Below, piece after piece: positions 6,792-59,590 of a stretch of 64,000 bases of DNA. The position numbers were made by a program, and so were the translations under genes. Under the pieces are notes generated by a model. The model did not search any database. It was not told the DNA's origin and saw only the letters and a program-made list of their open reading frames with translations. The DNA is from Candidatus Moraniibacteriota bacterium (lineage in GTDB: Bacteria; Patescibacteriota; Minisyncoccia; Moranbacterales; UBA1568), in contig JAUSGT010000003.1 of NCBI GenBank assembly GCA_030648835.1, positions 1,307 through 65,306 of the forward strand, read 5' to 3'. How positions within the stretch are numbered: the stretch's first letter is position 1; the number at the start of each line of letters is the position of its first letter.

Positions 6792-6946
6792 TTCCGCGGT
6801 GAAATCCTTTAATACGACTCCCCTGGCCAAGAATGCCGGAGGGAGTTCGTTTTTTATCAGAATCGTTTTTTGTCAAAGCACCGTTTTCTGTTATGCTTCG
6901 GTAAACAGAAAAAGCTCGTCCTTTACCAATTTTGAGAGGAGTCCCC

Positions 6947-10575: not shown

Positions 10576-11199
10576 TTACCACACTTCTTTTATATGTTCA
10601 ATGCTGCTCATTATCATTTTAAAATAGCTGCCACTTCTCGTCACTCTGATTCGGCACATTCCATACGGAAGCTTCCCCTCCTTTTTACCGTGAAGCCAGT
10701 TTATACCCCTTATAGACTCTGGCAAAATATCCAGTTTTTGAGCCCAAAATGCCCTTGCCACAGACTCCTTGATGTCTCCATAGAGACGAAGATTTATTCG
10801 TAGATCAGATTTTTTCACCCCCAGTTTGAAGAGTCCTTGAATAAAGATTCGAACGAGATCTGGGTCACTGTTTGTTAAGTTAAGATCTCTCTTGCCCCCC
10901 TCGGCCCAATACAATGCGACTATAAAGAGGACAAGGCCTTCTTTGTGGAGAGGAAAAGACATAGAATTGGCTTGTTTACGGGCTTTATCCCATAAAATTT
11001 GAGACCGTTTCTTACTCCCGCCCTGTTTCTCACGCAATAGATCCCTGTATTGAGGGAGTACCACTACATCTTTAACATATTTAAAAACAGTACTGTTGCC
11101 ACGTTTTAGTAGAGAGCAGATTTCAGGCAAACTATGACCTGTTTTTCTGAGTTGCTTAATCTGATGTATTTCCAATTTTGATATAGGCACTCCATTCAT
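10576..11199 (-). CDS. HTH-domain protein with LAGLIDADG-like homing-endonuclease core (free-standing)
   Basis: N-terminal resolvase-type HTH (IKQLRKTGHSLPEICSLLKRGNSTVFKYV); central LVLFIVALYWAEGGKRD plus downstream IFIQGLFKLG resemble the LAGLIDADG helix and I-CreI-like fold; lies 12 nt from tRNA-Arg and 133 nt from tRNA-Ala. Confidence 0.45.
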   Translation of the reverse strand: MNGVPISKLEIHQIKQLRKTGHSLPEICSLLKRGNSTVFKYVKDVVVLPQYRDLLREKQGGSKKRSQILWDKARKQANSMSFPLHKEGLVLFIVALYWAEGGKRDLNLTNSDPDLVRIFIQGLFKLGVKKSDLRINLRLYGDIKESVARAFWAQKLDILPESIRGINWLHGKKEGKLPYGMCRIRVTRSGSYFKMIMSSIEHIKEVW

Positions 11200-11533: not shown

Positions 11534-13285
11534 ATGGCACAGGTCATTGTTATAATGAAAAGGTCTATGTCATTGTCTTTTTCCTCTCACAATTTGAAAC
11601 AATCTTTTGGTATGATTCGTTTCCATACTATCCTGTTTACCTTTTTTCTTCTCTCGCTCCCCTTCTCTATCCGCAAGGTCTTGGGCGTTTTTTCGCCGGA
11701 TGGTTCATTTAATGAGTATTTAGACGTATCTTTATACCTTTCTGACGTCCTGTTTATAGCAGTTTTGATAGTATTTATATTAGAAAATAAAAAAGAATTA
11801 TTGTCAATATCTTACTGGAGACAAATGTTCCACGTGGAACATTTACTTCTCCCCATTTTCATTCCGGCACTCCTTATTTTTTGGTCTGGACTATCCATTT
11901 TATGGTCAGAAAGTGCTCCATTAGCTGTAGTAGCATTTTTTAGGCTTATTGAAGGGTATCTATTATATCTATATATTCTTGTTTGTAATGTTCCACGTGG
12001 AACATTATTGAATAAAGGTGGCCAGACTGATATGTTCCACGTGGAACATTTGGATGACAAAACACAAAATGTTCCACGTGGAACATTTATTGATAGAATA
12101 TTAATCTGTATATCACAATGTTCCACGTGGAACATTTTACAAATATCATTAACTGCAATCATTGTTTCAGGAGCTTTCCAATCCATAGCGGCAATTTTAC
12201 AGTTTATAAGGCAAAAATCTTTAGGACTGACTTTTCTTAAAGAGAGCATTTTTAGTATATATGATCCGGGAGTAGCTAAAGTAGTTATAAGTGGAGATGT
12301 TTTTGTTAGATCTTACGGTTTTTTCCCACACCCGAACATACTTGGAGGCTTTTTGGCACTATCTCTACTCACAACAATTGTTTATCCATTGATATTTAGG
12401 TCAAAAATGTTCCACGTGGAACATCATATTAACGTTTGGCTCTATAGAGGGATAATTATTATACAGCTACTGGCACTTTCTCTTAGCTTTTCCAAATCTG
12501 CCATTCTAGCTTTCGTTATTGGTCTTGCTATGGTTGTTTCCGGAATACACAAAATGTTCCACGTGGAACATTTGGATGACAAAACACAAAATGTTCCACG
12601 TGGAACATTTCAGAATTCAGTAGCTAGCCAGATCCAAAAATGTTCCACGTGGAACATTTATAGAAAATCTATAACAAGTATTTTTAATAAAATGTTCCAC
12701 GTGGAACATTTGATTATTGTATGGACGATCATCATAGCGGGAGTAATGTTACTTTTTATTAATTTAAAGTTTTTTATTGTCCAACCGTTTACTGAGAGGT
12801 TATTTTATATGAGTTCAATTAAAGGCTTATATGAAGCATACTTATTCGAAGGGCTGGGTATAGGACAATATGTTTTTGGTATGCAGCGCTTTTTTATCGA
12901 TAAATTGCTACCATGGCAATTGCAACCTATCCATAATGTGTTTCTCCTTATTTTCAGCGAAATCGGTTTAGTGGGGCTTGTTCTATTTTTATGGTTTCTG
13001 GTCTTTGTTTATTTAAGAAATAACAAAAATGTTCCACGTGGAACATCTACTTACCAAAACCCGGAATGTTCCACGTGGAACAATTCTTTGTCTAGTTATA
13101 TAAAAATGTTCCACGTGGAACAATTATTCAATGCTAGGCAAGCTGTTATAGCCTGTTTATTCCAATCCTTACTAACAATCATCATATTTATCATGTTTTT
13201 TGATCATTACTTTTGGGATATACAACAGGGACAGCTTCTATTATGGATTATACTAGCTTTTACTGTTTCTAATAAGAAATATTGA
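11534..13285 (+). CDS. O-antigen ligase/polymerase (Wzy_C)-like polytopic membrane protein carrying 13 in-frame palindromic-repeat insertions
   Basis: Single 583-codon ORF; >10 hydrophobic segments; RSYGFFPHPNILGGF resembles the O-antigen ligase R-x-G-x-F-x-H-P-H-N loop. The ORF stays open through 13 copies of a 16-22-bp palindrome translated as MFHVEH, NVPRGT(F/L/S) or CSTWNI depending on frame. Confidence 0.55.
   Translation: MAQVIVIMKRSMSLSFSSHNLKQSFGMIRFHTILFTFFLLSLPFSIRKVLGVFSPDGSFNEYLDVSLYLSDVLFIAVLIVFILENKKELLSISYWRQMFHVEHLLLPIFIPALLIFWSGLSILWSESAPLAVVAFFRLIEGYLLYLYILVCNVPRGTLLNKGGQTDMFHVEHLDDKTQNVPRGTFIDRILICISQCSTWNILQISLTAIIVSGAFQSIAAILQFIRQKSLGLTFLKESIFSIYDPGVAKVVISGDVFVRSYGFFPHPNILGGFLALSLLTTIVYPLIFRSKMFHVEHHINVWLYRGIIIIQLLALSLSFSKSAILAFVIGLAMVVSGIHKMFHVEHLDDKTQNVPRGTFQNSVASQIQKCSTWNIYRKSITSIFNKMFHVEHLIIVWTIIIAGVMLLFINLKFFIVQPFTERLFYMSSIKGLYEAYLFEGLGIGQYVFGMQRFFIDKLLPWQLQPIHNVFLLIFSEIGLVGLVLFLWFLVFVYLRNNKNVPRGTSTYQNPECSTWNNSLSSYIKMFHVEQLFNARQAVIACLFQSLLTIIIFIMFFDHYFWDIQQGQLLLWIILAFTVSNKKY
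11823..13125. repeat. Array of 13 copies of a perfect palindrome, core TGTTCCACGTGGAACA (usually AAATGTTCCACGTGGAACATTT), embedded in a CDS
   Basis: Copies at 11823-11844, 11986-12007, 12031-12050, 12067-12088, 12117-12136, 12405-12424, 12552-12573, 12589-12610, 12638-12659, 12690-12711, 13027-13046, 13065-13085, 13104-13125; composite 57-nt unit (repeat + GGATGACAAAACACAA + repeat) identical at 12031-12088 and 12552-12610. Confidence 0.9.
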
Positions 13286-13618: not shown

Positions 13619-14602
13619 ATGTACGAAGCGTCTTTTCGAAGTATTTCGGAGAAGAGCACGAAGTTTACGTTATTTCTTTTTTTCAGCCTGCTTATTTTGA
13701 GTGTGGGCTTTTTTGTTTTTGCGGATGATACGGCGAGCAAAAAAAATATTTTTCAGGATTCCGATCAAGATGGTTTGAGCAATGATGAAGAAAAACTCTA
13801 CGGAACAAATCCTTTCAATAAAGATACCGACGGTGACGGATATAGCGATGGTATTGAAGTGGAGAGCGGGTATGATCCACTGAGGCACGCGCCGGGGGAT
13901 AAGATTATCAAGGAAAATAAAATTGCTTCCGTGCCCGTTCAAGGCGAGACAGAAAATTTGACGCAGAAAGTTTCCGGAGAAATCGCCGGCATTTTGAAGA
14001 CGACGAATGAAAGTGGCCAAGCGATTTCCTTGGAAGCAATAAATGCTTCTGTGGAAAAAGTACTCGGCGGGAATATGGAAGAAGTAACGCTTCCGGAAAT
14101 TGACAGCAAAGATATCAAGATAAAAAAATTGCCGAAAAATCTCAAGGAAAAAAATCGGGTAGAAGTAGAGCGCAAAGACGCGATTGAATATCTGACGGTT
14201 ATGGCCTATCTTTTAGCCAACAATACGCCACAAACCTTTCAGACACAGGACGATTTGGGGAGCATGCTGACCAGTCTTTCGACTGATTCTCTCACTGCCT
14301 TGTCATCGGGTAATATGGATGCGATTGAGCAGTTATCCAAGCGAGGGGAAAAAATGTTGGGAGAATTGAAGGATGTAGAAGTGCCGGAAAAAATGGTGGA
14401 TGTGCACGTGAAGGCTCTGAAGATGGCCCGCTACGCGATGCAATTGAAAGAAGAACTCAAACCCACGGGAAGCGATCCGCTTGGACAGATAGCCGTCCTT
14501 TCCAAAGCCCAAGGATTTTTGGGGAGCGTCATAGGATTTGTCGATGAAGTACAAAAGAAATTATCCGATTATGGCATTGAAGAAGTTCCACTTAACTTGT
14601 AG
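13619..14602 (+). CDS. Secreted protein with N-terminal Ca-binding-like D-x-D-x-D-G repeats (thrombospondin type-3-like)
   Basis: Signal peptide/TM (TLFLFFSLLILSVGFFVFA) then DSDQDGLSNDEEKLYGTNPFNKDTDGDGYSDGIEVESGYDP; extended -10 TGTTATAAT at 13583-13591 upstream. Confidence 0.55.
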   Translation: MYEASFRSISEKSTKFTLFLFFSLLILSVGFFVFADDTASKKNIFQDSDQDGLSNDEEKLYGTNPFNKDTDGDGYSDGIEVESGYDPLRHAPGDKIIKENKIASVPVQGETENLTQKVSGEIAGILKTTNESGQAISLEAINASVEKVLGGNMEEVTLPEIDSKDIKIKKLPKNLKEKNRVEVERKDAIEYLTVMAYLLANNTPQTFQTQDDLGSMLTSLSTDSLTALSSGNMDAIEQLSKRGEKMLGELKDVEVPEKMVDVHVKALKMARYAMQLKEELKPTGSDPLGQIAVLSKAQGFLGSVIGFVDEVQKKLSDYGIEEVPLNL

Positions 14603-14632
14603 TCTATGATGATTTGTTCCCCAAAAGAAAAA

Positions 14633-15517
14633 ATGGCAAGGAAACTGATAAAGCAAGTAACAACTTCTGGCCTGATATTTTTTGGTTTGGTTTTTTGTTT
14701 GTTCCCGCAGCCGGCGCGTGCTGACGCATGGGGGGCGAATATGGGGGCAGCCATAATGAAACAGATGTTGGAAAGAATCGCGCGGCAAATCGAAGGGTCT
14801 CTTCTGGGATCGCTGAAGATGGCGGCTGTGCAGATGCTCAATAATCAAGTAGGCCAACTCATCGGCGGGGGAGCATCGGGGCAACCACGCTTCATTACCA
14901 ACTTCAATGATTTTTTGTATCAGGGTCCGAGACAGCGTACCAATCTGTATATGAATGATTTCTTTACGCTGACGACGCGAGGGAGAGGAGCTTCTGCAAA
15001 CTATGTGAGTGCGAGAAGTGGCGGTGGGAACTATGTAGGGTATCTAGAATCAGTTGGTAGAAAAGCGACTGTTGAAAGCGAGGCGTCGTGCACTGTAGAT
15101 CTTGAGGAGTCTGCCAATGCGGAAACGATGTTTGAGGAAGGAGATTTTCGCGGTTTTAATGCCTTCGTTTCCAACCCGTGTAACAATCCTTATGGTTATG
15201 CTTTGGAAGCAGAAGACGCATATCAGGGTGAGTTGATGAGACAACAAGAAGCGGCGGCCATTGAAGCACAATCTTCCGGGTTTTTGGGGGCGAAACAGGG
15301 CAATATGGTGATAACACCGGCAGGATCTATTGAAGCGGCAACGACCAACATACAGAATCTCCCCAATCAGATTATCGCGTCCGCGTCGAACCCCACAGAG
15401 CTCTTGAATGGTGTCGTGTCAGCCATGGCCAATCAAGTGGTAAATAATCTTGTTCGGAATGGCATAGGGCAAGTACAGACGAATATTCGAAGAGAGATCG
15501 GTAGTGTGAAAAGGTAG
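14633..15517 (+). CDS. Secreted hypothetical protein (Gly/Ala/Asn-rich), C-terminus interrupted by TAG at 15515
   Basis: Signal peptide MARKLIKQVTTSGLIFFGLVFCLFPQPARA; ORF frame 14606..15517; 25-aa repeat continues in frame past the stop. Confidence 0.5.
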   Translation: MARKLIKQVTTSGLIFFGLVFCLFPQPARADAWGANMGAAIMKQMLERIARQIEGSLLGSLKMAAVQMLNNQVGQLIGGGASGQPRFITNFNDFLYQGPRQRTNLYMNDFFTLTTRGRGASANYVSARSGGGNYVGYLESVGRKATVESEASCTVDLEESANAETMFEEGDFRGFNAFVSNPCNNPYGYALEAEDAYQGELMRQQEAAAIEAQSSGFLGAKQGNMVITPAGSIEAATTNIQNLPNQIIASASNPTELLNGVVSAMANQVVNNLVRNGIGQVQTNIRREIGSVKR

Positions 15518-15767
15518 ACCAATCTCGTTCGCAATCAGGCAACGGGGTTACTCGGACCAGCGGCTCCGTTTACGCAAAGCGTTCTTCAGCGGAGCATCCA
15601 GGTCAACCCGAGCATGCCGACACTCTCCAACACCGTTACGGGCGGGTATTAGGGACCATTTCAACAGAGTCCAAACAAAAACAAAAAACTCGCACTGCTT
15701 CTTTCGGGAGGCGGGGCGAGTTTTTTTATGGGTGGGGGCCTGTCCAGATTCTCTATTCTGTGCCTTG

Positions 15768-15841
15768 TGGGTGATACTGGACTCGAACCAGTGACCTTCA
15801 CAATGTCAATGTGATGCTCTAACCAGCTGAGCTAATCACCC
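15768..15841 (-). tRNA. tRNA-Val (anticodon GAC)
   Basis: Minus strand: GGGTGAT-TA-GCTC-AGCTGGTTA-GAGC-A-TCACA-TTGACAT-TGTGA-AGGTC-ACTGG-TTCGAGT-CCAGT-ATCACCC-A. Confidence 0.85.
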
Positions 15842-16046
15842 ACGAGATACAGAATCAATGTAGCGCCCTAACTTCACCCCGTCACCTATTCAAGAAAAAA
15901 CTGTGGTTATTGGAAGCCGTGAGACGTAGTCGCCCTACGGCTTTTACTAACAACTGGAGCACGTTCTTACTAAAATAGGTGACGGGGCAAGCTGCCAGCC
16001 CAAGGCTGGTCCGCCTCGGGCGGAAGCTATACGCCCTTTTCGGTTT

Positions 16047-16952
16047 TTACTGTGCCGGAGGGGTTTCGGGGAGAGTGTGGTTGTCAAATACGGACTCTTT
16101 TTCTTTGGCAAATTCTGTTGTTTCATCCTGGCCGGCGATAGATTTGAAGAAAGCCAGCCAGAGCGCTTGTTGGAAGATGCTGAACCAGGTGAAAAATGCC
16201 AAACCGACGATAAGGGCGATGGATGTTTCTTCAAACGGTATGCCTATCTTTTTGGAAAGAGTGACAATGCCCAGGATAATGGTGTTCACGAAAAAAGTAA
16301 AGAGAATTGTCAGTATGAAAGAGAAGAGACCGAAAAGAAGACTTTGAAAAATGAAACGGGAAAAAAGCGCGCCACCGGTTTCGATAGAGCCGCGAATTTT
16401 GAGAGGGGAGAGGAGGAGATAGAAAAGAGCGAATCGGCTAACGAAAAAAATGGCGATGGCGATGGGGATGAAAGCGAGAAAACCGAGCTGCAAAAGCGTC
16501 GTCATTACTCCCGGGTTTTGCGAGGAGGCGATGAGGAAAGGGAGAGAAAATATGCCGATGACCGCCAAGAGAAAAATGAGCGTAAGACATTCGAGAGAGA
16601 ATGTGCGGATGAAATTTTTTCCGATGGCGCGAGCGTTAACCGGATAGCTGGGAAGATGTGTTTTCCCCGTGACGAAAGACAGGGAAGCGATGAGATTGCC
16701 TTTCCCAAAAATTTCCAGGCCAAAGAGAAAAACGAAAATCAAAAGAAAAGAGAGTAGTGCCCCCTCGCTCTTTTCGGAAATACTGTTTAAGAATTCCGGG
16801 AAAGATGTAGTGTCGGGGAGTGTCAAGCTGATCCTGCTTTCGATGACTCCCGCGATCGCAAGGAGGGTACCAAAAATCCAGGGCAGTTTTTTGGACAGCG
16901 TTGCTTGCCATGCCGATAGGATGAATGTACGGAACGGTAATTTTTCCAACAT
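16047..16952 (-). CDS. Hypothetical polytopic membrane protein (last gene of rpsA-ftsH transcription unit)
   Basis: 301 aa with ~8 hydrophobic segments; no catalytic motif recognised. Confidence 0.45.
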   Translation of the reverse strand: MLEKLPFRTFILSAWQATLSKKLPWIFGTLLAIAGVIESRISLTLPDTTSFPEFLNSISEKSEGALLSFLLIFVFLFGLEIFGKGNLIASLSFVTGKTHLPSYPVNARAIGKNFIRTFSLECLTLIFLLAVIGIFSLPFLIASSQNPGVMTTLLQLGFLAFIPIAIAIFFVSRFALFYLLLSPLKIRGSIETGGALFSRFIFQSLLFGLFSFILTILFTFFVNTIILGIVTLSKKIGIPFEETSIALIVGLAFFTWFSIFQQALWLAFFKSIAGQDETTEFAKEKESVFDNHTLPETPPAQ

Positions 16953-50793: not shown

Positions 50794-53295
50794 ATGATTT
50801 TTTTGGGTGGAAATAAAAAGAAAAATGTTCTTAGGTTAAAGATGGTTTCTTTCTTGGTGCCTGTATTGCTTCTTTTTGGGAAAGTTAAAACTGCTCATGC
50901 TGTTGTTCCTCTTGTTGGATATGGGCTTTGGGCTGCGGGCGGTGCTGTAGCAGCATACTTTGGATCGGAGGCCGCAGGTAATATTGTTGTGTATGCATTC
51001 AAGTGGCTTCTTTATGGTATTTTTACCATGTTTGGGTGGCTGGCATCTTTAGCTATTTCTATTTTTGAGTGGGCAATAGACCCCAATGACGTTATTCTCC
51101 TTTTCAACAATCCTGGAGTGTATGAATCGTGGAAATTTGTGCGCGACTTCTTCAATCTATTTTTCATTCTCATTTTGCTTTATATCGCCTTTACGGTGGT
51201 GTTCCAGATTAATAAAGATTTCAAGAAGACCATATTGAGTCTGGTACTGGCGGCTCTCTACATCAATTTCAGTTTTCCCGTTTCGCGCGCGCTTATCGAT
51301 ATGACCAATGTGCCGATGTACTTCTTTGCCAATCAGATGATGGCGAGAAGTGCAGCACAGGGGACGGGAATTTTGGGTGGGGTGATGACCGCCTCACACA
51401 TAGCGGGGATACTTATTCCCGGAGCTGAAAAGGGAGGAGACTTTGAAACTAGTGAAGTAAGTGTTTCGCGCCTTTTGATGGCAATCGTGTTTATGTTCAT
51501 TTTTTCTATTACTTTACTCGTTTTGTCTATCATGTTCGTCATCCGGTTGGTAGCTTTGGTTATTCTTGTTATATTTTCTTCGGTAGGATTTGCGGCATCC
51601 ATCATTCCGGGAATGAGCAGTTATTCCAAGCAGTGGTGGGATAATTTTTGGAAATACGCACTCTTTGGTCCGGCGGCGATGCTGATGATTCTTGTTGCCA
51701 CGCGTTTTTTTGCCTCAATGGGTAATGATAGTGGGGCGCTTATGCAGAGTATGAAAGCTGTTACAGTAAATAATGTTGTGGCTTCAGAACAAACTTTTTT
51801 CGCATCCATGGCGTTGTTCACAATTCCGATTATTATGCTCTGGTTCGCGATGGGGTTGGCGCAGAAGATGTCCATCGCCGGCGCCTCCACAGTCGTCGGT
51901 CTCGGGCAGAAAGTAGCCAAGTGGGTAGGAAAACAAGCCACTCTTACGCCAGCAGCATTTCTCGGGCGTAAATATGAGAAGTTTATGACTACTCGGAAAG
52001 GTAAGGTTGGGGCAGTAACAAAGTGGCTTGCTCCCACGGCTGCTTATAAAGGTTGGGAAAAATGGCGAGAGCGATCGCACGAATTGGATCACAAGCCGGT
52101 AGAACAGGCGGGGGCGAAAATCAGTGACGAAATGGCAGTCGCTTATTCTACAACGCTTGGGCGGCTTCCTATCATCGGCTCGAAGGATCATACGGACCAT
52201 GCTTTCAAGAACTTTTCAGCCAATGCTGCCAAAGAACGGAAAGAAATTTCCGATATTTCTACCAACTCGGATTATGTCATCCATGAGCTTATCAATGCCA
52301 TCAAGGCTGAAGACGATGACAAGGTAGTGGGAGCTTTGCAGATTTTGGCTTCCAACAATGATTTGAACGATATGATGCACGTGATGGAGAGGATTCAAGA
52401 TGAAACCGGCGTCAATCTCGGTAAAGTGACAGAGGAAAATCCTACAGGAAGGGCCAGCAGCGAAATGAGCAGCGAAAATGCCAAGGAAGTTTTGAAAAAT
52501 ATGATGAAACATGCTGGGCTGAATGATGAAATGGCCGCTAAGAATATGCTCAATATTTCCAATACTGCCATTGCGGCCGGCAATGTCGGTATGGCCGGTT
52601 CTGCCAAATTGGGTGACGATGGTAAATTCAGAATTACTACCGATGAAGAGCAGGCTCAAATTGCTGCCGCTAAACTTCAGAATCTGGAAACTCAGGCTCG
52701 TCAGCGGACGCTCCATCACAACGCGATTTTCAAAGAAAAGGGGAAGTTCAATAAAGTAAAGGATGCCAGTGGCAATCTTGTCGATGAGGAAGTCGAAATG
52801 ATGGGCGAAGATGGCAAACCGAAAAAGGTCAGAGTTGCCCATTATGGCGGTATTAATGATCTGGCTGGCGAAGCGGTGTTGGGGACCATTACGGCAGCCG
52901 ACCTTCGTGAATCGCACCGTTCCCGTGATGATTTGAAGCGTGAAATTGCTATTCGTATGGAAGTTATCCGTGAGGGGAGTGGTGGAAAGGACTTAGAAGG
53001 CAATATAGTACCGCCCGAAGAAGTTGAGAAACTGAAAAAAGAGATGGAAGATGCTATGGAAAAAAATCCGAACCTTAAACATTATTTTAAGTTATTGTAT
53101 GCATATCAGACGGGTGTTCACTATGATAGTCAAAGTCCTGCAGATAAAGATGGAAAGGAAATAAAACCAAAGGAAGGACAAGAAGCCAAGGCGGCTCCGG
53201 CAGCTGCACCAGCGGAAACTCCGGCTGAAAAGCATGCAAGAGACAAGGCAGAAGCTAAGGCAAAAGCGGATGCACGTAATAATAGAGGACGTTAG
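50794..53295 (+). CDS. Putative VirB6/TrbL-like type IV secretion membrane protein with long hydrophilic C-terminal extension
   Basis: N-terminal ~380 aa with 6-7 TM helices, then ~450 aa charged/coiled region ending in Ala/Pro/Lys-rich tail; neighbours VirB4 and PrgI-like genes. Confidence 0.35.
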   Translation: MIFLGGNKKKNVLRLKMVSFLVPVLLLFGKVKTAHAVVPLVGYGLWAAGGAVAAYFGSEAAGNIVVYAFKWLLYGIFTMFGWLASLAISIFEWAIDPNDVILLFNNPGVYESWKFVRDFFNLFFILILLYIAFTVVFQINKDFKKTILSLVLAALYINFSFPVSRALIDMTNVPMYFFANQMMARSAAQGTGILGGVMTASHIAGILIPGAEKGGDFETSEVSVSRLLMAIVFMFIFSITLLVLSIMFVIRLVALVILVIFSSVGFAASIIPGMSSYSKQWWDNFWKYALFGPAAMLMILVATRFFASMGNDSGALMQSMKAVTVNNVVASEQTFFASMALFTIPIIMLWFAMGLAQKMSIAGASTVVGLGQKVAKWVGKQATLTPAAFLGRKYEKFMTTRKGKVGAVTKWLAPTAAYKGWEKWRERSHELDHKPVEQAGAKISDEMAVAYSTTLGRLPIIGSKDHTDHAFKNFSANAAKERKEISDISTNSDYVIHELINAIKAEDDDKVVGALQILASNNDLNDMMHVMERIQDETGVNLGKVTEENPTGRASSEMSSENAKEVLKNMMKHAGLNDEMAAKNMLNISNTAIAAGNVGMAGSAKLGDDGKFRITTDEEQAQIAAAKLQNLETQARQRTLHHNAIFKEKGKFNKVKDASGNLVDEEVEMMGEDGKPKKVRVAHYGGINDLAGEAVLGTITAADLRESHRSRDDLKREIAIRMEVIREGSGGKDLEGNIVPPEEVEKLKKEMEDAMEKNPNLKHYFKLLYAYQTGVHYDSQSPADKDGKEIKPKEGQEAKAAPAAAPAETPAEKHARDKAEAKAKADARNNRGR

Positions 53296-53316
53296 TTTTA
53301 CGGTTTAGTATAAAGT

Positions 53317-54969
53317 ATGGAACTCCAAAACAAGCAACAACAATACGAAGATATCTACGCACGGGCGTTGGACGCGATCGAGCACTGGGATGCTGTGTTG
53401 GCTTGGAATATTTATTGTGAGTTGGAGAAGTTTCTCGGGGGGTTGCCAATGGAGCAAAAACAAGAGCCCGAGCTTGCCAAAGAAATCGTAATTCTCAAGC
53501 GCAGTCTGCTTGCGGTGGGTTTCCCCGCGTTGCCGAGGGAGGGCGCGGTGAGGCTTTTTCGTGAGCACATCCTGGATTTTTTTCGGGTGGATGTGGATTT
53601 TAAAGAACGGCTTTTGACACGCTATACCTTTGTTGGTTATGGAGAAAAAGAGGATGAGCAAAAACGTTTACAAGAAGCGCTGCTCCAAAATCAAGAACGT
53701 CTTGGGCAGTTTACTTTGGGTGAGTGGGTGAAACTTTTTGAGCGGCACTTTAAATTAGAAACGCGCGACAAACAGGCAGTGACGACTTTCTTGACACAAA
53801 CTGGTGAGGTGGCATCACTGACGAAGTCAGAACAATCAATTTTACGCCAGATTCTTTCTGTTTATGACCAATATATAGCGCACGTGGCTTTGGATGAATT
53901 TGATATGGCTGTGATAGGGGCTAGTGTAAATCAGGAACAGGCTTCCCGTCATGCTACCAGTCGAGGAACTTCGTCACCCAGTAGGGCAGATCAAAAAGCA
54001 GCAGTTTCTCTTCCGCTTCTGCAAGCGTTATCGAAGTATGAGCGGCTCGGGGAGCAGTTGATTACTCGGGGACGCATCAAAGTGGGGTCACAAACGGAGC
54101 CGGTGCGACCGTCGCTTCTTTACTGGCTCAAATATTACCGTGATGAACTGGGTATCGGACAGCACTCGAGTGTGGAGCGTGGGAATTTCTTATTCCGTTC
54201 CGAAAACGGCAAGAATCTTTCTGCCGAAGAGCGCGAACGAATCAATATCATCTTGAAATCGGTAGAAGAGAATTTTCCGCTCTCGATTGATCCCAAGAAC
54301 CAAGAAATTATCTTCCCCACCAGCAACGCTTTCAGCATAACTGCAGCGAGTAGGCCCGCTTCGACAACGCCCCTGGTCTCGCGAGGCGAAAATTCAGGCG
54401 GGAGAAGTAGCCCTGTCTTCAATGTTTCGCCTGTTCGTGGTAGCTATCCCAACAGTGTTGCCGGTGTGCCCGCTTTTGTTTCGGCACCTGTATTCAAAAG
54501 TGCTCAAACATCGGTTTCTCTGCCTCTTCCAAAAGTCGCGACTATCGGCACCCCGGCATTCTTTGTCCCCAAGCCCGAAGAAAGTGAAATTCGTGAGAAA
54601 AAACCGCCAACCGCGAGTCCTATCAGCTTTTTTGACCCACATGAAGGGGATGGGAAAGCCAAGGAAGCCATTATTCCGCCTGTGCAAACCAAAAGTGTTA
54701 GTTTTTCCACGAGTCATATCTTTCCGGCAGAAAAAGAAGCGGCTGAGGTACGCTCCCGTATGAGTGAGACTTCAATGAAGCAAGTGGTTGTCCCAGAGAA
54801 AGAGACACCGCCTCTACCTCCTCAGCCCGCTCTGCCTTTGGCTTCCCAGGATGAGCCTGTTGTTGCCCCTACGTCCCAATCGGCTCCAAATTTTTCACAG
54901 CCGAACCCTATACCAAAAAAGTTAAACTCATTCCGTATTCGCCCGGTCAGTCTTGGCGGAAGGGATTAG
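53317..54969 (+). CDS. Hypothetical protein (T4SS-cluster associated), Pro/Ser-rich C-terminus
   Basis: 550 aa, no TM, no recognised domain. Confidence 0.35.
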   Translation: MELQNKQQQYEDIYARALDAIEHWDAVLAWNIYCELEKFLGGLPMEQKQEPELAKEIVILKRSLLAVGFPALPREGAVRLFREHILDFFRVDVDFKERLLTRYTFVGYGEKEDEQKRLQEALLQNQERLGQFTLGEWVKLFERHFKLETRDKQAVTTFLTQTGEVASLTKSEQSILRQILSVYDQYIAHVALDEFDMAVIGASVNQEQASRHATSRGTSSPSRADQKAAVSLPLLQALSKYERLGEQLITRGRIKVGSQTEPVRPSLLYWLKYYRDELGIGQHSSVERGNFLFRSENGKNLSAEERERINIILKSVEENFPLSIDPKNQEIIFPTSNAFSITAASRPASTTPLVSRGENSGGRSSPVFNVSPVRGSYPNSVAGVPAFVSAPVFKSAQTSVSLPLPKVATIGTPAFFVPKPEESEIREKKPPTASPISFFDPHEGDGKAKEAIIPPVQTKSVSFSTSHIFPAEKEAAEVRSRMSETSMKQVVVPEKETPPLPPQPALPLASQDEPVVAPTSQSAPNFSQPNPIPKKLNSFRIRPVSLGGRD

Positions 54970-55089
54970 TCGCAAATGGAATTATGAATAGGGAATCGAG
55001 AATCACGAAAAAAGAAGAGAGCATGTTATAATAAGCAGGTATTGAATACATAATTCTCAATTCTTGATTCATGATTCCTCTTCAAAACT

Positions 55090-55497
55090 ATGATGTTCAG
55101 TGTTCCGCAATTTATCGATGTTGAAGACAAGATAGCCGGGCCGCTCACCTGGAAACAACTCCTTTGGATGATTGGTATGGGAGCAGTACTCCTGGTTTCT
55201 TTCAATGCTTTTGATACCTCGTTGTTTTTCATCATAGCTGTCCCGACGGTTCTTATCTTCACGGCCTTGGCTTTCTACCGCCCCAACGGGTTCCCTCTGA
55301 CGACATTTATCTTTTATGCCATTCTTTTTCTTTTCCGCCCGAAAGTGTCCGTCTGGGAACGCCCGCTGGAAAAACAATCGCTAGCCAAAGCACCGGTGGA
55401 GAAAACAGACGCGGCGGATACGCATGCCAAACATATCAATCAGGAAAAACTTACCGAATTGGCGCACATTTTGGATAGTCAAGGTGGGGGAAAGTAG
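55090..55497 (+). CDS. PrgI/VirB3-like small membrane protein
   Basis: 135 aa; FIDVEDKIAGPLTWKQLLWMIGMGAVLLVSF followed by second TM; architecture typical of PrgI family proteins encoded next to VirB4. Confidence 0.45.
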   Translation: MMFSVPQFIDVEDKIAGPLTWKQLLWMIGMGAVLLVSFNAFDTSLFFIIAVPTVLIFTALAFYRPNGFPLTTFIFYAILFLFRPKVSVWERPLEKQSLAKAPVEKTDAADTHAKHINQEKLTELAHILDSQGGGK

Positions 55498-55553
55498 AAT
55501 CAAGAGTCAAGAATTAAGAACCACAAAAAAGAAAGAAAATAAACAACAAAACA

Positions 55554-56243
55554 ATGGAGCTTTTGAAGCCGAAAAATAAAGGAGGGAGTACGTCCGGCAC
55601 GCAGAAATATGTGGAAGTGGATGAGATCCGCGATGGTGTTATCGTGCTCAAAAGTGGGGCTCTCCGCGCTGTCGTGCTTGTTTCATCACTCAACTTCGAC
55701 CTCAAATCAACGGAAGAACAGGATGCCATTATCAATCAGTACCAACAGTTCTTGAACTCGCTCGACTTTCCTGTCCAGATCGTTATTAGCTCTCGCCGTT
55801 TCAATATTGAACCATACCTCGATCTTCTCGAGAAAGAGGTAAAACAGCAAGAGAACGAACTTTTGCGTTTCCAGATTTCCGAATATAAGTCTTTCATCAA
55901 AAACCTGACGGAAGTGTCGAATATTATGTCGAAGTATTTTTATGTTGTCGTGCCTTTTTCTTCCTCGGAGGATGAGCAGGGTGGTTTTATTGACAAGATT
56001 CTCGGCACTTTTCGTTCCAAGCAGTCTGTTGGCGCGCATGGCGTTCTCTTCGAAACGTACAAAGCTCAACTTTTTCAGCGCGTCAATCATATCGCGACAG
56101 CTCTCGGGGCGGCGGGCGTCAACGCGGTACCGCTCGGTACGGAAGAAATTATCGAACTGCTTTACAACAGTTACAATCCATCACTCTACACGGCGGCGGT
56201 TATAAAAAATGTTGAGGATATCGAGCTTGGACCAAGCAAATGA
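55554..56243 (+). CDS. Hypothetical T4SS-associated protein
   Basis: 229 aa soluble protein immediately upstream of VirB4 ATPase gene. Confidence 0.35.
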   Translation: MELLKPKNKGGSTSGTQKYVEVDEIRDGVIVLKSGALRAVVLVSSLNFDLKSTEEQDAIINQYQQFLNSLDFPVQIVISSRRFNIEPYLDLLEKEVKQQENELLRFQISEYKSFIKNLTEVSNIMSKYFYVVVPFSSSEDEQGGFIDKILGTFRSKQSVGAHGVLFETYKAQLFQRVNHIATALGAAGVNAVPLGTEEIIELLYNSYNPSLYTAAVIKNVEDIELGPSK

Positions 56244-56381
56244 AAAATGCAAAAATCAACTCATCCCAAGTAACCCCCATTGTCATTCTGAGCAGAGCGA
56301 AGAATCCCGTTATAAAAAGCAACTGCTTCTTCCATTCGAGATCCTTCACTCCGTTCAGGACGACAGCCAAGTAAGGGAAGA

Positions 56382-58268
56382 ATGAAATTAAATAAAAAAG
56401 ACATGGCACAAAGAACTCCCATTATTGATATAGAGGCACAAGGAGCGGACGCTTCCAAGAAGAAAAGCGTGCTTGATATTTTTAATCGTCCAAAAAAAAT
56501 GAGCGCTGCCGAGACGCTCTATCAGCGCGGGGTTGCCACCATCAGGGACTTGATCGCACCTCCGGCCATCAAGCTCAGCCCCAACACGATGCAGATCGGT
56601 GAGATCGTGTCGCGTACATATTTTGTTATCACCTACCCGCGCTTCCTCTCCACCAATTGGTTCTCGCCGATTATCAATATTGATTTCGCGATGGATATCG
56701 CGCTCTTTGTGCACCCTATCGATACGGCGGAAATTTTGAAGACACTTCGCAAGTCGTCGACGCAGGTGCAGTCACAGATTCGTATCGAAACTGAAGGCGG
56801 GAAAGTGCGCGACCCGGTCTTGGAAACCGCGCTCGAAGACATCGAGGGTTTGCGTAACAACCTGCAACAGGGTACGGAGAAATTTTTCCGTTTCGGTCTC
56901 TATATGACTGTCTATGGGAGTGACGAGAAAGATCTGAACGGGAAATGTCAATCGATAGAGGCTATTCTCGAAGCTCAGCTGGTATATACGAAACCGGCGG
57001 TGATGCGTATGGACCAGGGGTTCGCGGCGACTCGGCCGTTGGCGAACGATGTTTTGGATGTCGCCAACAACCTGAATACGGAACCGCTCTCGACCACTTT
57101 CCCCTTCGTTTCTTCCGATCTCTCTTCCAATGAAGGTATTCTCTATGGTATCAATCGCCACAACAACAGTTTGATATTGTTTGATCGTTTCAAGATGGAA
57201 AACGCCAATATGGTGGTGTTCGCCAAATCCGGCGCCGGCAAAAGCTACACTGTGAAATTGGAAGTTTTGAGATCGATGATGTTCGGATCAAGCGTCATTA
57301 TCATCGATCCGGAGAATGAATACAAGCATTTGTGCGAGGCCGTGAGTGGGACGTTTTTGAAGGTTTCGCTCAATTCCGATGTTCATCTCAATCCTTTTGA
57401 TTTGCCGAAGAAAATCGAGGATGAGGATAGCGTGGGGCTGTTCCGCAACACTATTGCCAATCTCATCGGGCTGCTTCATCTGATGCTCGGTTCCGTGACA
57501 CCGGAAGAGGACTCTATTCTCGATCGCGCTATCCGGGAAGCATATGCCATCCGCGATATTACAGAGACGAGTGATTTTTCGATCCTTACTCCAAACTCAT
57601 TTCCGACCATGTCCGATCTCTACGCGGTGTTGGAAAATATGGAGGGAGCAGAGTCGCTTGCGGCGCGCTTGGAGCGCTATACGGAAGGGATTTTTGGCGG
57701 TTTTCTCAACAAGCAAACCAATGTGGAAACGGACAATCAGCTGGTCGTCTTCAACATTCGTGATTTGGAAGATGAGCTTCGGCCGATTGCGATGTATATC
57801 ATCCTGCAATTTATCTGGAACGAAATTCGTTCGCATATGAAGAAACGCGTGATTGTGGTGGATGAGGCGTGGGTGATGATGCAGCACGAGGATGCCGCGG
57901 CCTTTCTTTTCGGTATCGCCAAACGTTGTCGCAAATACTATACGGGATTGACGACTATTACCCAGGATATCGGGGACTTTGCTTCTTCGCGTCATGGCAA
58001 ACCGATTATTACCAACTCCTCGATGCAACTTCTCTTGCGCCAATCGCCATCCTCCATTGATCTGGTGGCGGAAACATTCTACCTCACGGATCACGAGAAA
58101 TTTCTCCTGCTTGAGAGCAATGTGGGAGAGGGAATTTTCTTTGCCGGGTCCAAACACGCGGCTATCAAAGTGATCGCCTCCTACAGCGAAGATCAGATTA
58201 TTACTTCCGACCCGCGGCAATTACTCGAGATTGAACAGGCCAAAAAAGATTTCGATGCAGGGCAGTGA
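56382..58268 (+). CDS. VirB4/TrbE/CagE-family type IV secretion ATPase
   Basis: Walker A VVFAKSGAGKSYTVKLEV, Walker B RVIVVDEAWVMM, downstream ITQDIGDF and C-terminal motifs of VirB4-type ATPases; 628 aa. Confidence 0.75.
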   Translation: MKLNKKDMAQRTPIIDIEAQGADASKKKSVLDIFNRPKKMSAAETLYQRGVATIRDLIAPPAIKLSPNTMQIGEIVSRTYFVITYPRFLSTNWFSPIINIDFAMDIALFVHPIDTAEILKTLRKSSTQVQSQIRIETEGGKVRDPVLETALEDIEGLRNNLQQGTEKFFRFGLYMTVYGSDEKDLNGKCQSIEAILEAQLVYTKPAVMRMDQGFAATRPLANDVLDVANNLNTEPLSTTFPFVSSDLSSNEGILYGINRHNNSLILFDRFKMENANMVVFAKSGAGKSYTVKLEVLRSMMFGSSVIIIDPENEYKHLCEAVSGTFLKVSLNSDVHLNPFDLPKKIEDEDSVGLFRNTIANLIGLLHLMLGSVTPEEDSILDRAIREAYAIRDITETSDFSILTPNSFPTMSDLYAVLENMEGAESLAARLERYTEGIFGGFLNKQTNVETDNQLVVFNIRDLEDELRPIAMYIILQFIWNEIRSHMKKRVIVVDEAWVMMQHEDAAAFLFGIAKRCRKYYTGLTTITQDIGDFASSRHGKPIITNSSMQLLLRQSPSSIDLVAETFYLTDHEKFLLLESNVGEGIFFAGSKHAAIKVIASYSEDQIITSDPRQLLEIEQAKKDFDAGQ

Positions 58269-58310
58269 GGTTGGGGGAGAATGATAAGAGAAATTTGAAT
58301 ACTTACGCTT

Positions 58311-58892
58311 ATGGCATCGGAACCGTCCGCGGCATCAAAAGCCGCTTCTCAAGCAAGACGGCGTGCTATGGGGAAAGCACGGCGGGCCGTACGCAAGGCG
58401 GTACCCAAGACAAAATTTACTGGAGAGAAACCATCCTTCATGCTCTATGGTGGAGCGACCATTATTGCACTTTTCAAAGATTTGCTTGATTTTGTGGGGA
58501 TTGGGTCACTTCCGGCTATTGGCACGGTAGTAACTATTTGTTTCAGCTTGCTTATTTTTATTTTATTAACGGTTTTCGATAACTCTGGAGGATGGAACAA
58601 AACCAACAGGGTGATAATGCGCGGGCTGGTCTTTACCTTAGTGGCTATTTTTGAGGGAATTTTCTTTGGGCTTAATTTTTTGCCATTGGAAACATTTACT
58701 GTGATTGGACTTTATCTTTTTGCACGCCATACATGGAAAGAAGAGGATATAAAAGCTAAAGAGGAAAATCGACTCTCGGCACAGCAAACACGCGAGGAAC
58801 AGATACAAGAAGGGCGGTACGCGAGGATAGAAGAGGAAAGAAGGCAGGAAGAAATGGCACGAGAGCAAGCAATGACTGGTGGTAACAGTTGA
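58311..58892 (+). CDS. Hypothetical membrane protein (possible pilin/VirB2-like component)
   Basis: Basic N-terminus, 3-4 TM segments, charged C-terminal tail; in T4SS-like cluster. Confidence 0.3.
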   Translation: MASEPSAASKAASQARRRAMGKARRAVRKAVPKTKFTGEKPSFMLYGGATIIALFKDLLDFVGIGSLPAIGTVVTICFSLLIFILLTVFDNSGGWNKTNRVIMRGLVFTLVAIFEGIFFGLNFLPLETFTVIGLYLFARHTWKEEDIKAKEENRLSAQQTREEQIQEGRYARIEEERRQEEMAREQAMTGGNS

Positions 58893-58924
58893 TAGATAAT
58901 AGGAGGGGGGTATAATTTAAGAGT

Positions 58925-59581
58925 ATGTTGGAAACACTTTCGAAAAATCGGCGGTTTGTGGTGACGGGGTTGCTCGTTGTGTTTTCCATTTTGTTTTTGG
59001 GATTTTTCCCCGAGAACGATCGCTTGAGTCCGGCATTCCAGGGGCTGATTGTCAGTCTGGCATTTTTCTTGGTCATTCCTCTCTTGTATAGTAAAATAGT
59101 GCTAAGAGAGTCCTTGAAAAATATCGGCTTGCAGAAGGGAAATTTTGGAGCAGGGGTGCTGATTGGCACCGCTTCCGTCATCCTCGCCGTCATACTGGTG
59201 GTCTTCTTGGCGTTCACATTTCCTCCATTCCGCGCGCAGTATGTCTTTCCGGCTTTGATTGAAACAGGCTTTGTATGGTTTGTGCTTTATGAGCTTGTTC
59301 TGGTTCCTTTCATGATTATTCTGTACGAGGTGTTTTTCCGCGGGCTGGTGGAATTGCTCTGGCTCAAAGCGTTCGGACTCTGGGCCGTTTTCATCCAGAC
59401 AGGGATATTTCTCGGTTTTTCATACTTGAGCCATGACGTTTCTTGGCAGAGGCTTCCCTTCCTCATTTTCTGCCCGCTGGCGGGGTTTATCGCCTATCGC
59501 TCAGGATCTCTCTGGTATTCGTTCGCGGCCAGCTGGGTGTTCCTCTTTTTGACTGATATTTTTTTCCTCGTATTTCGTTAA
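58925..59581 (+). CDS. CPBP-family (CAAX/Abi-like) intramembrane protease
   Basis: Polytopic; LYEVFFRGL (E-E-x-x-x-R-like motif) and later SHD/His in TM context resemble CPBP motifs. Confidence 0.4.
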   Translation: MLETLSKNRRFVVTGLLVVFSILFLGFFPENDRLSPAFQGLIVSLAFFLVIPLLYSKIVLRESLKNIGLQKGNFGAGVLIGTASVILAVILVVFLAFTFPPFRAQYVFPALIETGFVWFVLYELVLVPFMIILYEVFFRGLVELLWLKAFGLWAVFIQTGIFLGFSYLSHDVSWQRLPFLIFCPLAGFIAYRSGSLWYSFAASWVFLFLTDIFFLVFR

Positions 59582-59590
59582 AAAATTCTT

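Follow-up and report, generated by a model that had tools for sequence, protein, structure and literature searches.

Introduction

Chromosomal parS sites belong to ParABS systems, such as those of Bacillus subtilis, Pseudomonas, Myxococcus, Corynebacterium and Streptomyces. They are spread over kilobases to hundreds of kilobases, usually near parAB, and a single parS may lie inside a coding sequence, e.g. within spo0J of B. subtilis. Among plasmid centromeres, sopC of the F plasmid consists of 12 tandem 43-bp repeats. Rickettsia palindromic elements (RPE), of about 100–150 bp, are a further kind of repeat that can reside in genes. The general consensus of the ParB/Spo0J binding site is TGTTNCACGTGAAACA (PMC7022226), and known chromosomes carry 1–22 parS sites each (PMC7022226, Table 1). 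Here we describe a 64-kb stretch of contig JAUSGT010000003.1 from Candidatus Moraniibacteriota bacterium (the window), in which one gene for a WaaL/O-antigen-ligase-family polytopic membrane protein (583 codons, 11534..13285, + strand) bears an entire array of the 16-bp palindrome TGTTCCACGTGGAACA. We propose that this array is most probably a gene-embedded chromosomal centromere, comprising 13 canonical parS sites that extend over 1.3 kb and lie in-frame in five loops of the WaaL-like protein.

The array shares with the chromosomal parS of known ParABS systems the same 16-bp palindrome and the clustering of several sites in one region. It differs from them in that one gene accommodates 13 sites (in relatives up to 19) within 1.3–1.6 kb, all in-frame in loops and with neighbours in different frames, while no parAB lies within 10 kb. 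The likeness to sopC-like plasmid centromeres consists in many ParB-type sites at about 37–52-bp spacing that would form one regional centromere; however, the window array has no fixed period, is split over five loops, is translated and is built of the chromosomal parS word.

Results

The window was scanned for TGTTCCACGTGGAACA over its full length, also allowing two mismatches. Thirteen exact copies were found between 11826 and 13122, every one inside the open reading frame (ORF) 11534-13285, and there was no further match elsewhere in the 64 kb, even with two mismatches. The chance expectation estimated from shuffles is 0.03 copies, and none of 100 shuffles reached 13. A first-pass annotation, made from the letters of the stretch, had already noted 13 identical 16-mers in one 583-codon ORF, and the scan bears this out. 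Letter for letter, TGTTCCACGTGGAACA is the chromosomal parS of Pseudomonas putida and P. aeruginosa (PMC7022226, Table 1), and all 13 copies match both this published word and the consensus TGTTNCACGTGAAACA. The identity argues for a ParB-binding centromere site rather than a mobile palindrome of the Rickettsia type. It also supports and sharpens the earlier idea that a CACGTG-centred array of dimeric binding sites is conceivable, since the site in question is the canonical ParB site parS.

The only variants in relatives are TGTTTCACGTGAAACA, TGTTTCACGTGGAACA and TGTTCCACGTGAAACA, the last of which we take to be the parS of B. subtilis. They are changed at the N position of the consensus and/or its symmetric partner, i.e. 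at positions 5 and/or 12. In 80 related loci (see below) the sites of the form TGTT[C/T]CACGTG[G/A]AACA comprise 271 CC..GG, 24 TC..GA, 23 TC..GG and 6 CC..GA, and the one-mismatch sites of the relative L124 are of exactly these consensus-position variant types. In a multi-phylum scan, which used one genome per species and required three copies of the 16-mer within about 100 bp, at least 119 loci from many phyla contained such triplets. Outside the candidate phyla radiation (CPR), the triplets of Acidobacteriota, Planctomycetota, Bacillota, Bdellovibrionota and others lie 1–3 kb from a gene with the ParB boxes GERRxRA and ENLQR, which indicates that the word acts as a genuine parS wherever its partner is visible.

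As can be read directly from its letters, TGTTCCACGTGGAACA is stop-free in every frame, and the 13 copies are translated in three frames as MFHVEH/Q (six copies), NVPRGT (four) and CSTWNI/N (three). The first-pass view that a stop-free palindrome is read in differing frames and leaves an O-antigen-ligase-like gene coding therefore stands, and the copies are tolerated in its loops. Two details were corrected: the copies occupy not four clusters but five loop positions (1+4+1+4+3 copies), and the 22-nt extended form AAATGTTCCACGTGGAACATTT (AAATGTT...ACATTT), described as the usual one, is present in 6 of the 13 copies. Site 1 (11826..11841, MFHVEH) lies in the loop of residues 88–103; its FHVE is orthologous in 58 of 103 aligned homologues, and in most orthologues it stands 163 nt ahead of site 2. 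The second loop (residues 152–201) holds site 2 (11989..12004, NVPRGT), site 3 (12033..12048, MFHVEH), site 4 (12070..12085, NVPRGT) and site 5 (12119..12134, CSTWNI). Site 6 (12408..12423, MFHVEH) is alone in the short loop of residues 288–298, and within the family its residues F293 and H294 are conserved to 90% or more. Residues 336–392 form the fourth loop with site 7 (12555..12570, MFHVEH), site 8 (12592..12607, NVPRGT), site 9 (12641..12656, CSTWNI) and site 10 (12693..12708, MFHVEH), and the fifth loop (residues 496–533) contains site 11 (13030..13045, NVPRGT), site 12 (13067..13082, CSTWNN) and site 13 (13107..13122, MFHVEQ). The spacings from copy to copy are 163, 44, 37, 49, 289, 147, 37, 49, 52, 337, 37 and 40 nt, and no consistent pattern of helical phasing was found in them.

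Orthologous loci have the gene order UDG-DHH-RbfA-array gene-TSP3-...-FtsH-TilS-Gmk-S1-...-GyrA in common. Exact 16-mers account for 17 of 17 sites in the relative L001 and for 18 of 19 in L002, all inside the orthologue, and the ±10-kb flanks of both contain none. In an alignment of 103 sequences the sites cluster at five shared hot spots, the frame is kept at each orthologous site, and within a hot spot the frames run in the cyclic order FHVE, VPRG, STWN. Orthologous positions and frames hold in homologues down to about 31% identity, and the distances over conserved transmembrane pairs are constant in most genomes (163 nt and 289 nt). The first protein homologue search was word-seeded and therefore biased towards carriers of the motif, a bias that was controlled in two ways. 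With an insert-free query, parS peptides were present in 47 of 51 new homologues. A metagenome scan seeded on native protein motifs only yielded 80 loci, and all of their 324 parS sites fall within the orthologous gene, while the 696 kb of flanking sequence is free of them; 61 of the 80 have at least one site, and the site-free ones are the most distant homologues (23–30% identity). Among 2.9 million viral contigs, one contained a triplet of the 16-mer. The arrangement is ancient in the Moranbacteria-type lineage and specific to one gene, and its conservation across this CPR lineage argues against a mobile element.

Selection keeps the DNA word and not the peptide. Of 262 occurrences of parS-derived peptides, 257 are encoded by one identical DNA string, whereas FPHPN, QPxHN and DIQQG, which are invariant as peptides, are written with 15–19 different DNA strings in 16–21 genomes. 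In comparison with the closest relative, L130 (84% protein identity), identity amounts to 85.2% in the core, where 334 conserved codons contain 76 synonymous differences, to 80.6% in the loop spacers and to 99.6% in the parS codons, of which the 77 conserved ones contain no synonymous difference. Across the lineage the 16-mer is invariant, whereas the flanks vary by genome and the rest of the gene has reached saturation at synonymous sites. In the homologue P0125, which uses TGTTTCACGTGAAACA, only the frames read as FHVKH and VSRET are found, as expected from the TGA in the third frame of this variant. Lineages poor in sites retain relics that are one or two letters off, several of them within the central CACGTG (e.g. 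CATGTG, CACATG), and the relic peptides (e.g. CSLWNI, IVPCGT, MFQVEH) have decayed, so that the peptides themselves are not the conserved entity.

Neighbouring sites of the lineage are almost always in different frames. For adjacent sites up to 70 bp apart, spacings in the genome loci were 1 mod 3 in 122 cases, 2 mod 3 in 30 and 0 mod 3 in 6; an independent metagenome sample gave 53, 38 and 1 in the same order, whereas arrays of other phyla gave 95, 115 and 109. Neighbours share a frame in 7 of 250 pairs of the lineage (6/158 + 1/92) versus 109 of 319 in other phyla. The pattern recurs at each of the five hot spots and also in expansions, with counts that are phylogenetically non-independent. 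Since neighbours are out of frame, gain or loss of a single unit shifts the frame of the gene, and therefore only three-unit or loop-exchange changes survive. The frame rule could have been selected because it stabilises the array, or it could be a by-product of history.

Exchange between loops can be followed with a 57-nt unit (parS + TTTGGATGACAAAACACAAAA + parS + TTT), which is present in loop 2 (12032..12088, + strand; sites 3 and 4) and identically in loop 4 (12554..12610, + strand; sites 7 and 8). The first-pass annotation had recognised this exact duplicate, with coordinates 1–2 nt off, and had taken it as a sign of recent mobility; the duplicate is real, but it reflects concerted evolution instead. 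In L130 the same two loops share the unit with the same two amino acid changes in both copies (LDDNAQ versus LDDKTQ in the window), and in L001, L002, L049, L037, L098 and L124 spacers particular to each genome recur, identical or nearly so, in different loops. The 57-nt copies are thus identical within each genome and different between genomes. The same changes in both loop copies together with genome-specific spacers point to intragenic recombination or gene conversion and not to transposition: the loops evolve in concert.

The host gene is functional, as judged from invariant residues, intact ORFs and the WaaL fold. More than 400 homologues of its product were found, and those with a name carry the label Moranbacteria/Moraniibacteriota, Parcubacteria or Patescibacteria. 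PF04932 (Wzy_C, O-antigen ligase) appears in the precomputed annotation of many homologues; the window protein itself scores 16.3 bits against this family, and 20.1 bits after deletion of the insert loops, below the gathering cutoff of 31.7. Across 103 sequences 15 residues are invariant, including H266, N268, R422, Q464, P465 and H467, which indicates purifying selection on the host protein, and the ORF is intact in 16 of 19 genome loci. The protein has the polytopic fold of the WaaL type, and the conserved His and Arg expected in the large extracytoplasmic loop are found in the invariant R422, Q464, P465 and H467, whose catalytic role is putative. In comparison with the O-antigen ligase WaaL (PDB 7TPG/7TPJ) it is 10–12% identical, and its presumed cytoplasmic loops are longer by about 145 residues that derive from parS sites and spacers. 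To our knowledge, no lipopolysaccharide synthesis has been described in CPR bacteria.

According to hydropathy and the structural model, the parS peptides lie between transmembrane or hydrophobic segments, always in alternate loops, and in loops of low predicted local distance difference test (pLDDT) score. The large conserved loops 223–268 (FPHPN) and 412–468 (QPxH) are on the opposite side of the membrane from them. As the large catalytic loop of WaaL (7TPG) is reportedly periplasmic, the parS-bearing loops would be cytoplasmic.

Several further features of the host gene and its records were observed. Two orthologues are broken, L028 by a single in-frame stop (6887-6889) and L075 by a frameshift within the array region (about 1100-1217), either through real inactivation or through assembly errors in the repeats. 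In array-rich genomes (window, L001, L002, L037, L109) the GC content of the host gene is 6–19 points below that of the surroundings; in the window it is 0.32 without the parS letters, compared to 0.47 around it. L126, with only three decayed sites, shows no such drop (0.36 versus 0.375). The bases beside the 16-mers (window 11822-13126; L002:10244-11885) are self-complementary beyond the expectation from shuffling partners within a genome, with a mean palindromic extension of 1.62 versus 1.27 in shuffles, none of which exceeded 1.46. In L002 the palindromic flank is different at every site, which would fit quasi-palindrome correction or selection for a cruciform or hairpin.

Short-read assemblies break at the array gene, gene callers truncate it or call it 'hypothetical', and the inserts mask the Pfam domain. 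In L001 the array gene is called as 425 aa within a 629-aa open frame. A Logan contig of the same organism (L123, SRR13727527, 9877 bp) ends about 180 bp beyond a 207-aa ORF described below and about 330 bp short of the start codon of the array gene, and the 583-aa product is absent from the records. Six third-party annotation (TPA) metagenome-assembled genomes (MAGs; L023, L028, L065, L068, L075, L078) are labelled 'uncultured Bdellovibrionales', yet their genes follow the Moranbacteria-type order and encode an FtsH that is 84–87% identical to that of the window; the taxonomic labels look wrong.

Head-to-tail arrays with a fixed period, a layout that the window array does not have, were seen only in other phyla. 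A Planctomycetota MAG carries 13 parS sites with a period of exactly 38 bp (L090:7407-7878), and a Granulosicoccaceae MAG 51 sites in 4.8 kb with a period of about 58–60 bp (L084:47-4851). Another very dense array, of 22 sites within 1.1 kb, lies immediately upstream of parB in a second Planctomycetota genome (L101:2081-3199). In-frame copies of the same parS word were also found in mnmG/gidA of Verrucomicrobia (L011:2692-2841 and L083) and Kiritimatiellae (L110:1603-1807), and in the RNase R gene of an Acidobacteriaceae MAG (L058:2174-2297). These mini-arrays have 3–5 copies in one linker, all in one frame (e.g. NVPRGT five times or FHVEQ three times), whereas the Moranbacteria-type array is larger, occupies five loops and steps in frame from site to site.

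Downstream of the array gene, genes for a secreted TSP3-repeat protein, a secreted 303-aa protein and a 301-aa membrane protein are conserved neighbours (13619-16952 in the window); they always come after the array gene in orthologous loci, and none of them encodes a DNA-binding protein. Their association with the WaaL-like enzyme suggests a conserved cell-surface module. Between the genes for tRNA-Arg and tRNA-Ala lies an ORF of 207 aa (10576-11199, − strand), which is also present in L123, is missing from L001 and L002, and has no match in Pfam and NCBIfam; it may be an inserted element beside the tRNAs. A scan for promoters and terminators revealed nothing apart from the palindromes themselves. 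Further away, the region 50794-62473 contains PrgI-like, TraC-like and VirB4/TraG-type ATPase genes together with large proteins (833, 550 and 960 aa) that have no family match, and looks like a type IV secretion or conjugation-like apparatus.

Discussion

Our analysis identified 13 copies of a canonical parS word in one membrane protein gene, and we consider a function as chromosomal centromere likely. ParB dimers would load at each 16-mer and build a single partition complex over 1.3 kb, which would mark the locus for chromosome segregation and probably also for SMC loading. The GG/CC form of parS, being stop-free in all frames, would fit into tolerant loops, to be translated there as MFHVEH, NVPRGT or CSTWNI, and in a compact genome the loops of a membrane enzyme may accommodate such a stop-free variant. 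Copy number would shift through recombination and gene conversion between loops, with only frame-preserving changes surviving.

Several observations weigh against a centromere at this locus. No ParA or ParB was found among the 60 ORFs of the window with Pfam, nor within ±10 kb of about 100 related loci, including a search with a ParB-box regular expression. A database search with a consensus ParB returned only non-CPR ParBs, and we found no report of ParB in the Moranbacteria-type lineage in the searchable literature. Along the entire window GC skew remains positive, without a switch, so that neither origin nor terminus lies inside it, and dnaA is absent from the window. The cytoplasmic position of the parS loops is deduced from homology to WaaL and the topology of that enzyme, and the positive-inside count is indecisive (20/192 versus 12/145). 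Furthermore, site counts across loci are phylogenetically non-independent. The genes gyrA, ftsH and tilS, which are origin-proximal in Firmicutes, lie 4–12 kb from the array gene.

An extension of the centromere model joins frame-locking, in which out-of-frame neighbours allow selection on the ORF to guard the repeats, with a transertion tether of ParB–parS to the membrane. The centromere would then make use of the gene and not simply be tolerated in it; we regard this combination as rather unlikely. With frame-locking, loss or gain of one copy by slippage or recombination would destroy a needed membrane protein and be purged, and a highly repetitive centromere would be stabilised in a tiny genome. 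With tethering, coupled transcription, translation and membrane insertion would anchor the segregating chromosome in ultra-small CPR cells. The gidA and RNase R arrays would then show centromeres embedded in coding sequence to be a recurrent design that had gone unrecognised.

Operator, phase-variation and hairpin models each account for some features of the array, but none of them accounts for parS identity together with DNA-level invariance. The 16-mer could be the operator of some non-ParB transcription factor that regulates the surface-glycan gene or its neighbours. It has perfect dyad symmetry around CACGTG, ParB was not located in the lineage, and ParB itself is able to silence neighbouring genes (PMC7022226). 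However, the word is exactly parS and varies only at positions 5 and/or 12, 13–19 sites run through 1.3–1.6 kb of coding sequence off the promoter, which is unlike an operator layout, and the adjacent conserved genes encode membrane or secreted proteins, none of them DNA-binding. An operator array of this kind therefore appears improbable to us.

Phase variation, in which out-of-frame repeat units are deleted or duplicated to turn the surface-glycan gene off and on, is very improbable. Single-unit exchange would indeed cause a frameshift because neighbours are nearly always out of frame, intragenic exchange clearly occurs, and the loci of the two MAGs L075 and L028 are broken. Yet the ORF is intact at 16 of the 19 genome loci, the damage in the others may stem from misassembled repeats, as the Logan assembly also breaks at the array, and such a switch leaves the exact parS identity, the lineage-wide invariance of the 16-mer and the fixed orthologous positions unexplained.

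The first-pass annotation favoured a miniature coding-tolerant mobile palindrome, similar to RPE or to miniature inverted-repeat transposable elements, that had recently proliferated in the gene. A palindrome that is stop-free in all frames, copies seated in loops and read in three frames, an exact 57-nt duplicate and a copy number per loop that varies among relatives would all be in agreement with this. The array resembles RPE in that palindromic DNA is tolerated in-frame in a protein gene and adds extra peptide in surface or loop regions, but the likeness remains an analogy: RPE are selfish, lineage-specific and dispersed across many genes and intergenic regions, whereas the array consists of a 16-bp universal protein-binding site in one gene, with orthologous positions. 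No dispersed copies were found in the window or the related flanks, and no recent non-orthologous insertions across 103 homologues; the 16-mer is pan-bacterial. Proliferation of a mobile element is largely refuted by confinement (no copy outside the gene in 64 kb or in 696 kb of related flanks), by orthologous, frame-keeping sites down to about 31% protein identity, by a core that is invariant while flanks and synonymous sites vary, and by near-absence from viral contigs (a triplet in just 1 among 2.9 million). Moreover, the duplicate evolves in concert and not by transposition, and neither a transposase nor target-site duplications were seen. We regard this explanation as extremely improbable.

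An RNA-level role, in which an mRNA hairpin behind every pair of transmembrane helices would cause translational pausing or make the transcript more stable, can hardly be credited: a 6–11-bp hairpin is possible at each site, T runs follow some of them, sites recur after every second transmembrane segment and palindromic flanks are commoner than in shuffles, but compensatory stem changes would be expected where stem and loop letters are invariant, only tRNA passed the Rfam threshold, with miRNA-like matches far below the cutoffs and hairpin artefacts, and the same word serves as non-coding parS beside parB in other phyla.

Single coding parS sites, clusters of up to 22 sites and plasmid repeat centromeres are already known. 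What appears to be new are the dense packing of 13–19 sites per gene, their in-frame position in five loops of a conserved enzyme, the conservation throughout a lineage and the frame rule, and we found no paper in the searchable literature that describes such gene-embedded parS arrays, or parS in this lineage. The gene is an unusually clean case of dual coding, in which a 16-bp protein-binding word is kept invariant and is nevertheless translated in three frames inside an enzyme under purifying selection, and the frame rule offers a testable idea of how a repeat array is stabilised. If the centromere reading holds, the locus is a compact, portable centromere of 1.3 kb and probably the one that serves the chromosome in a large lineage of uncultivated bacteria, the Moranbacteria and their relatives within the CPR/Patescibacteria.

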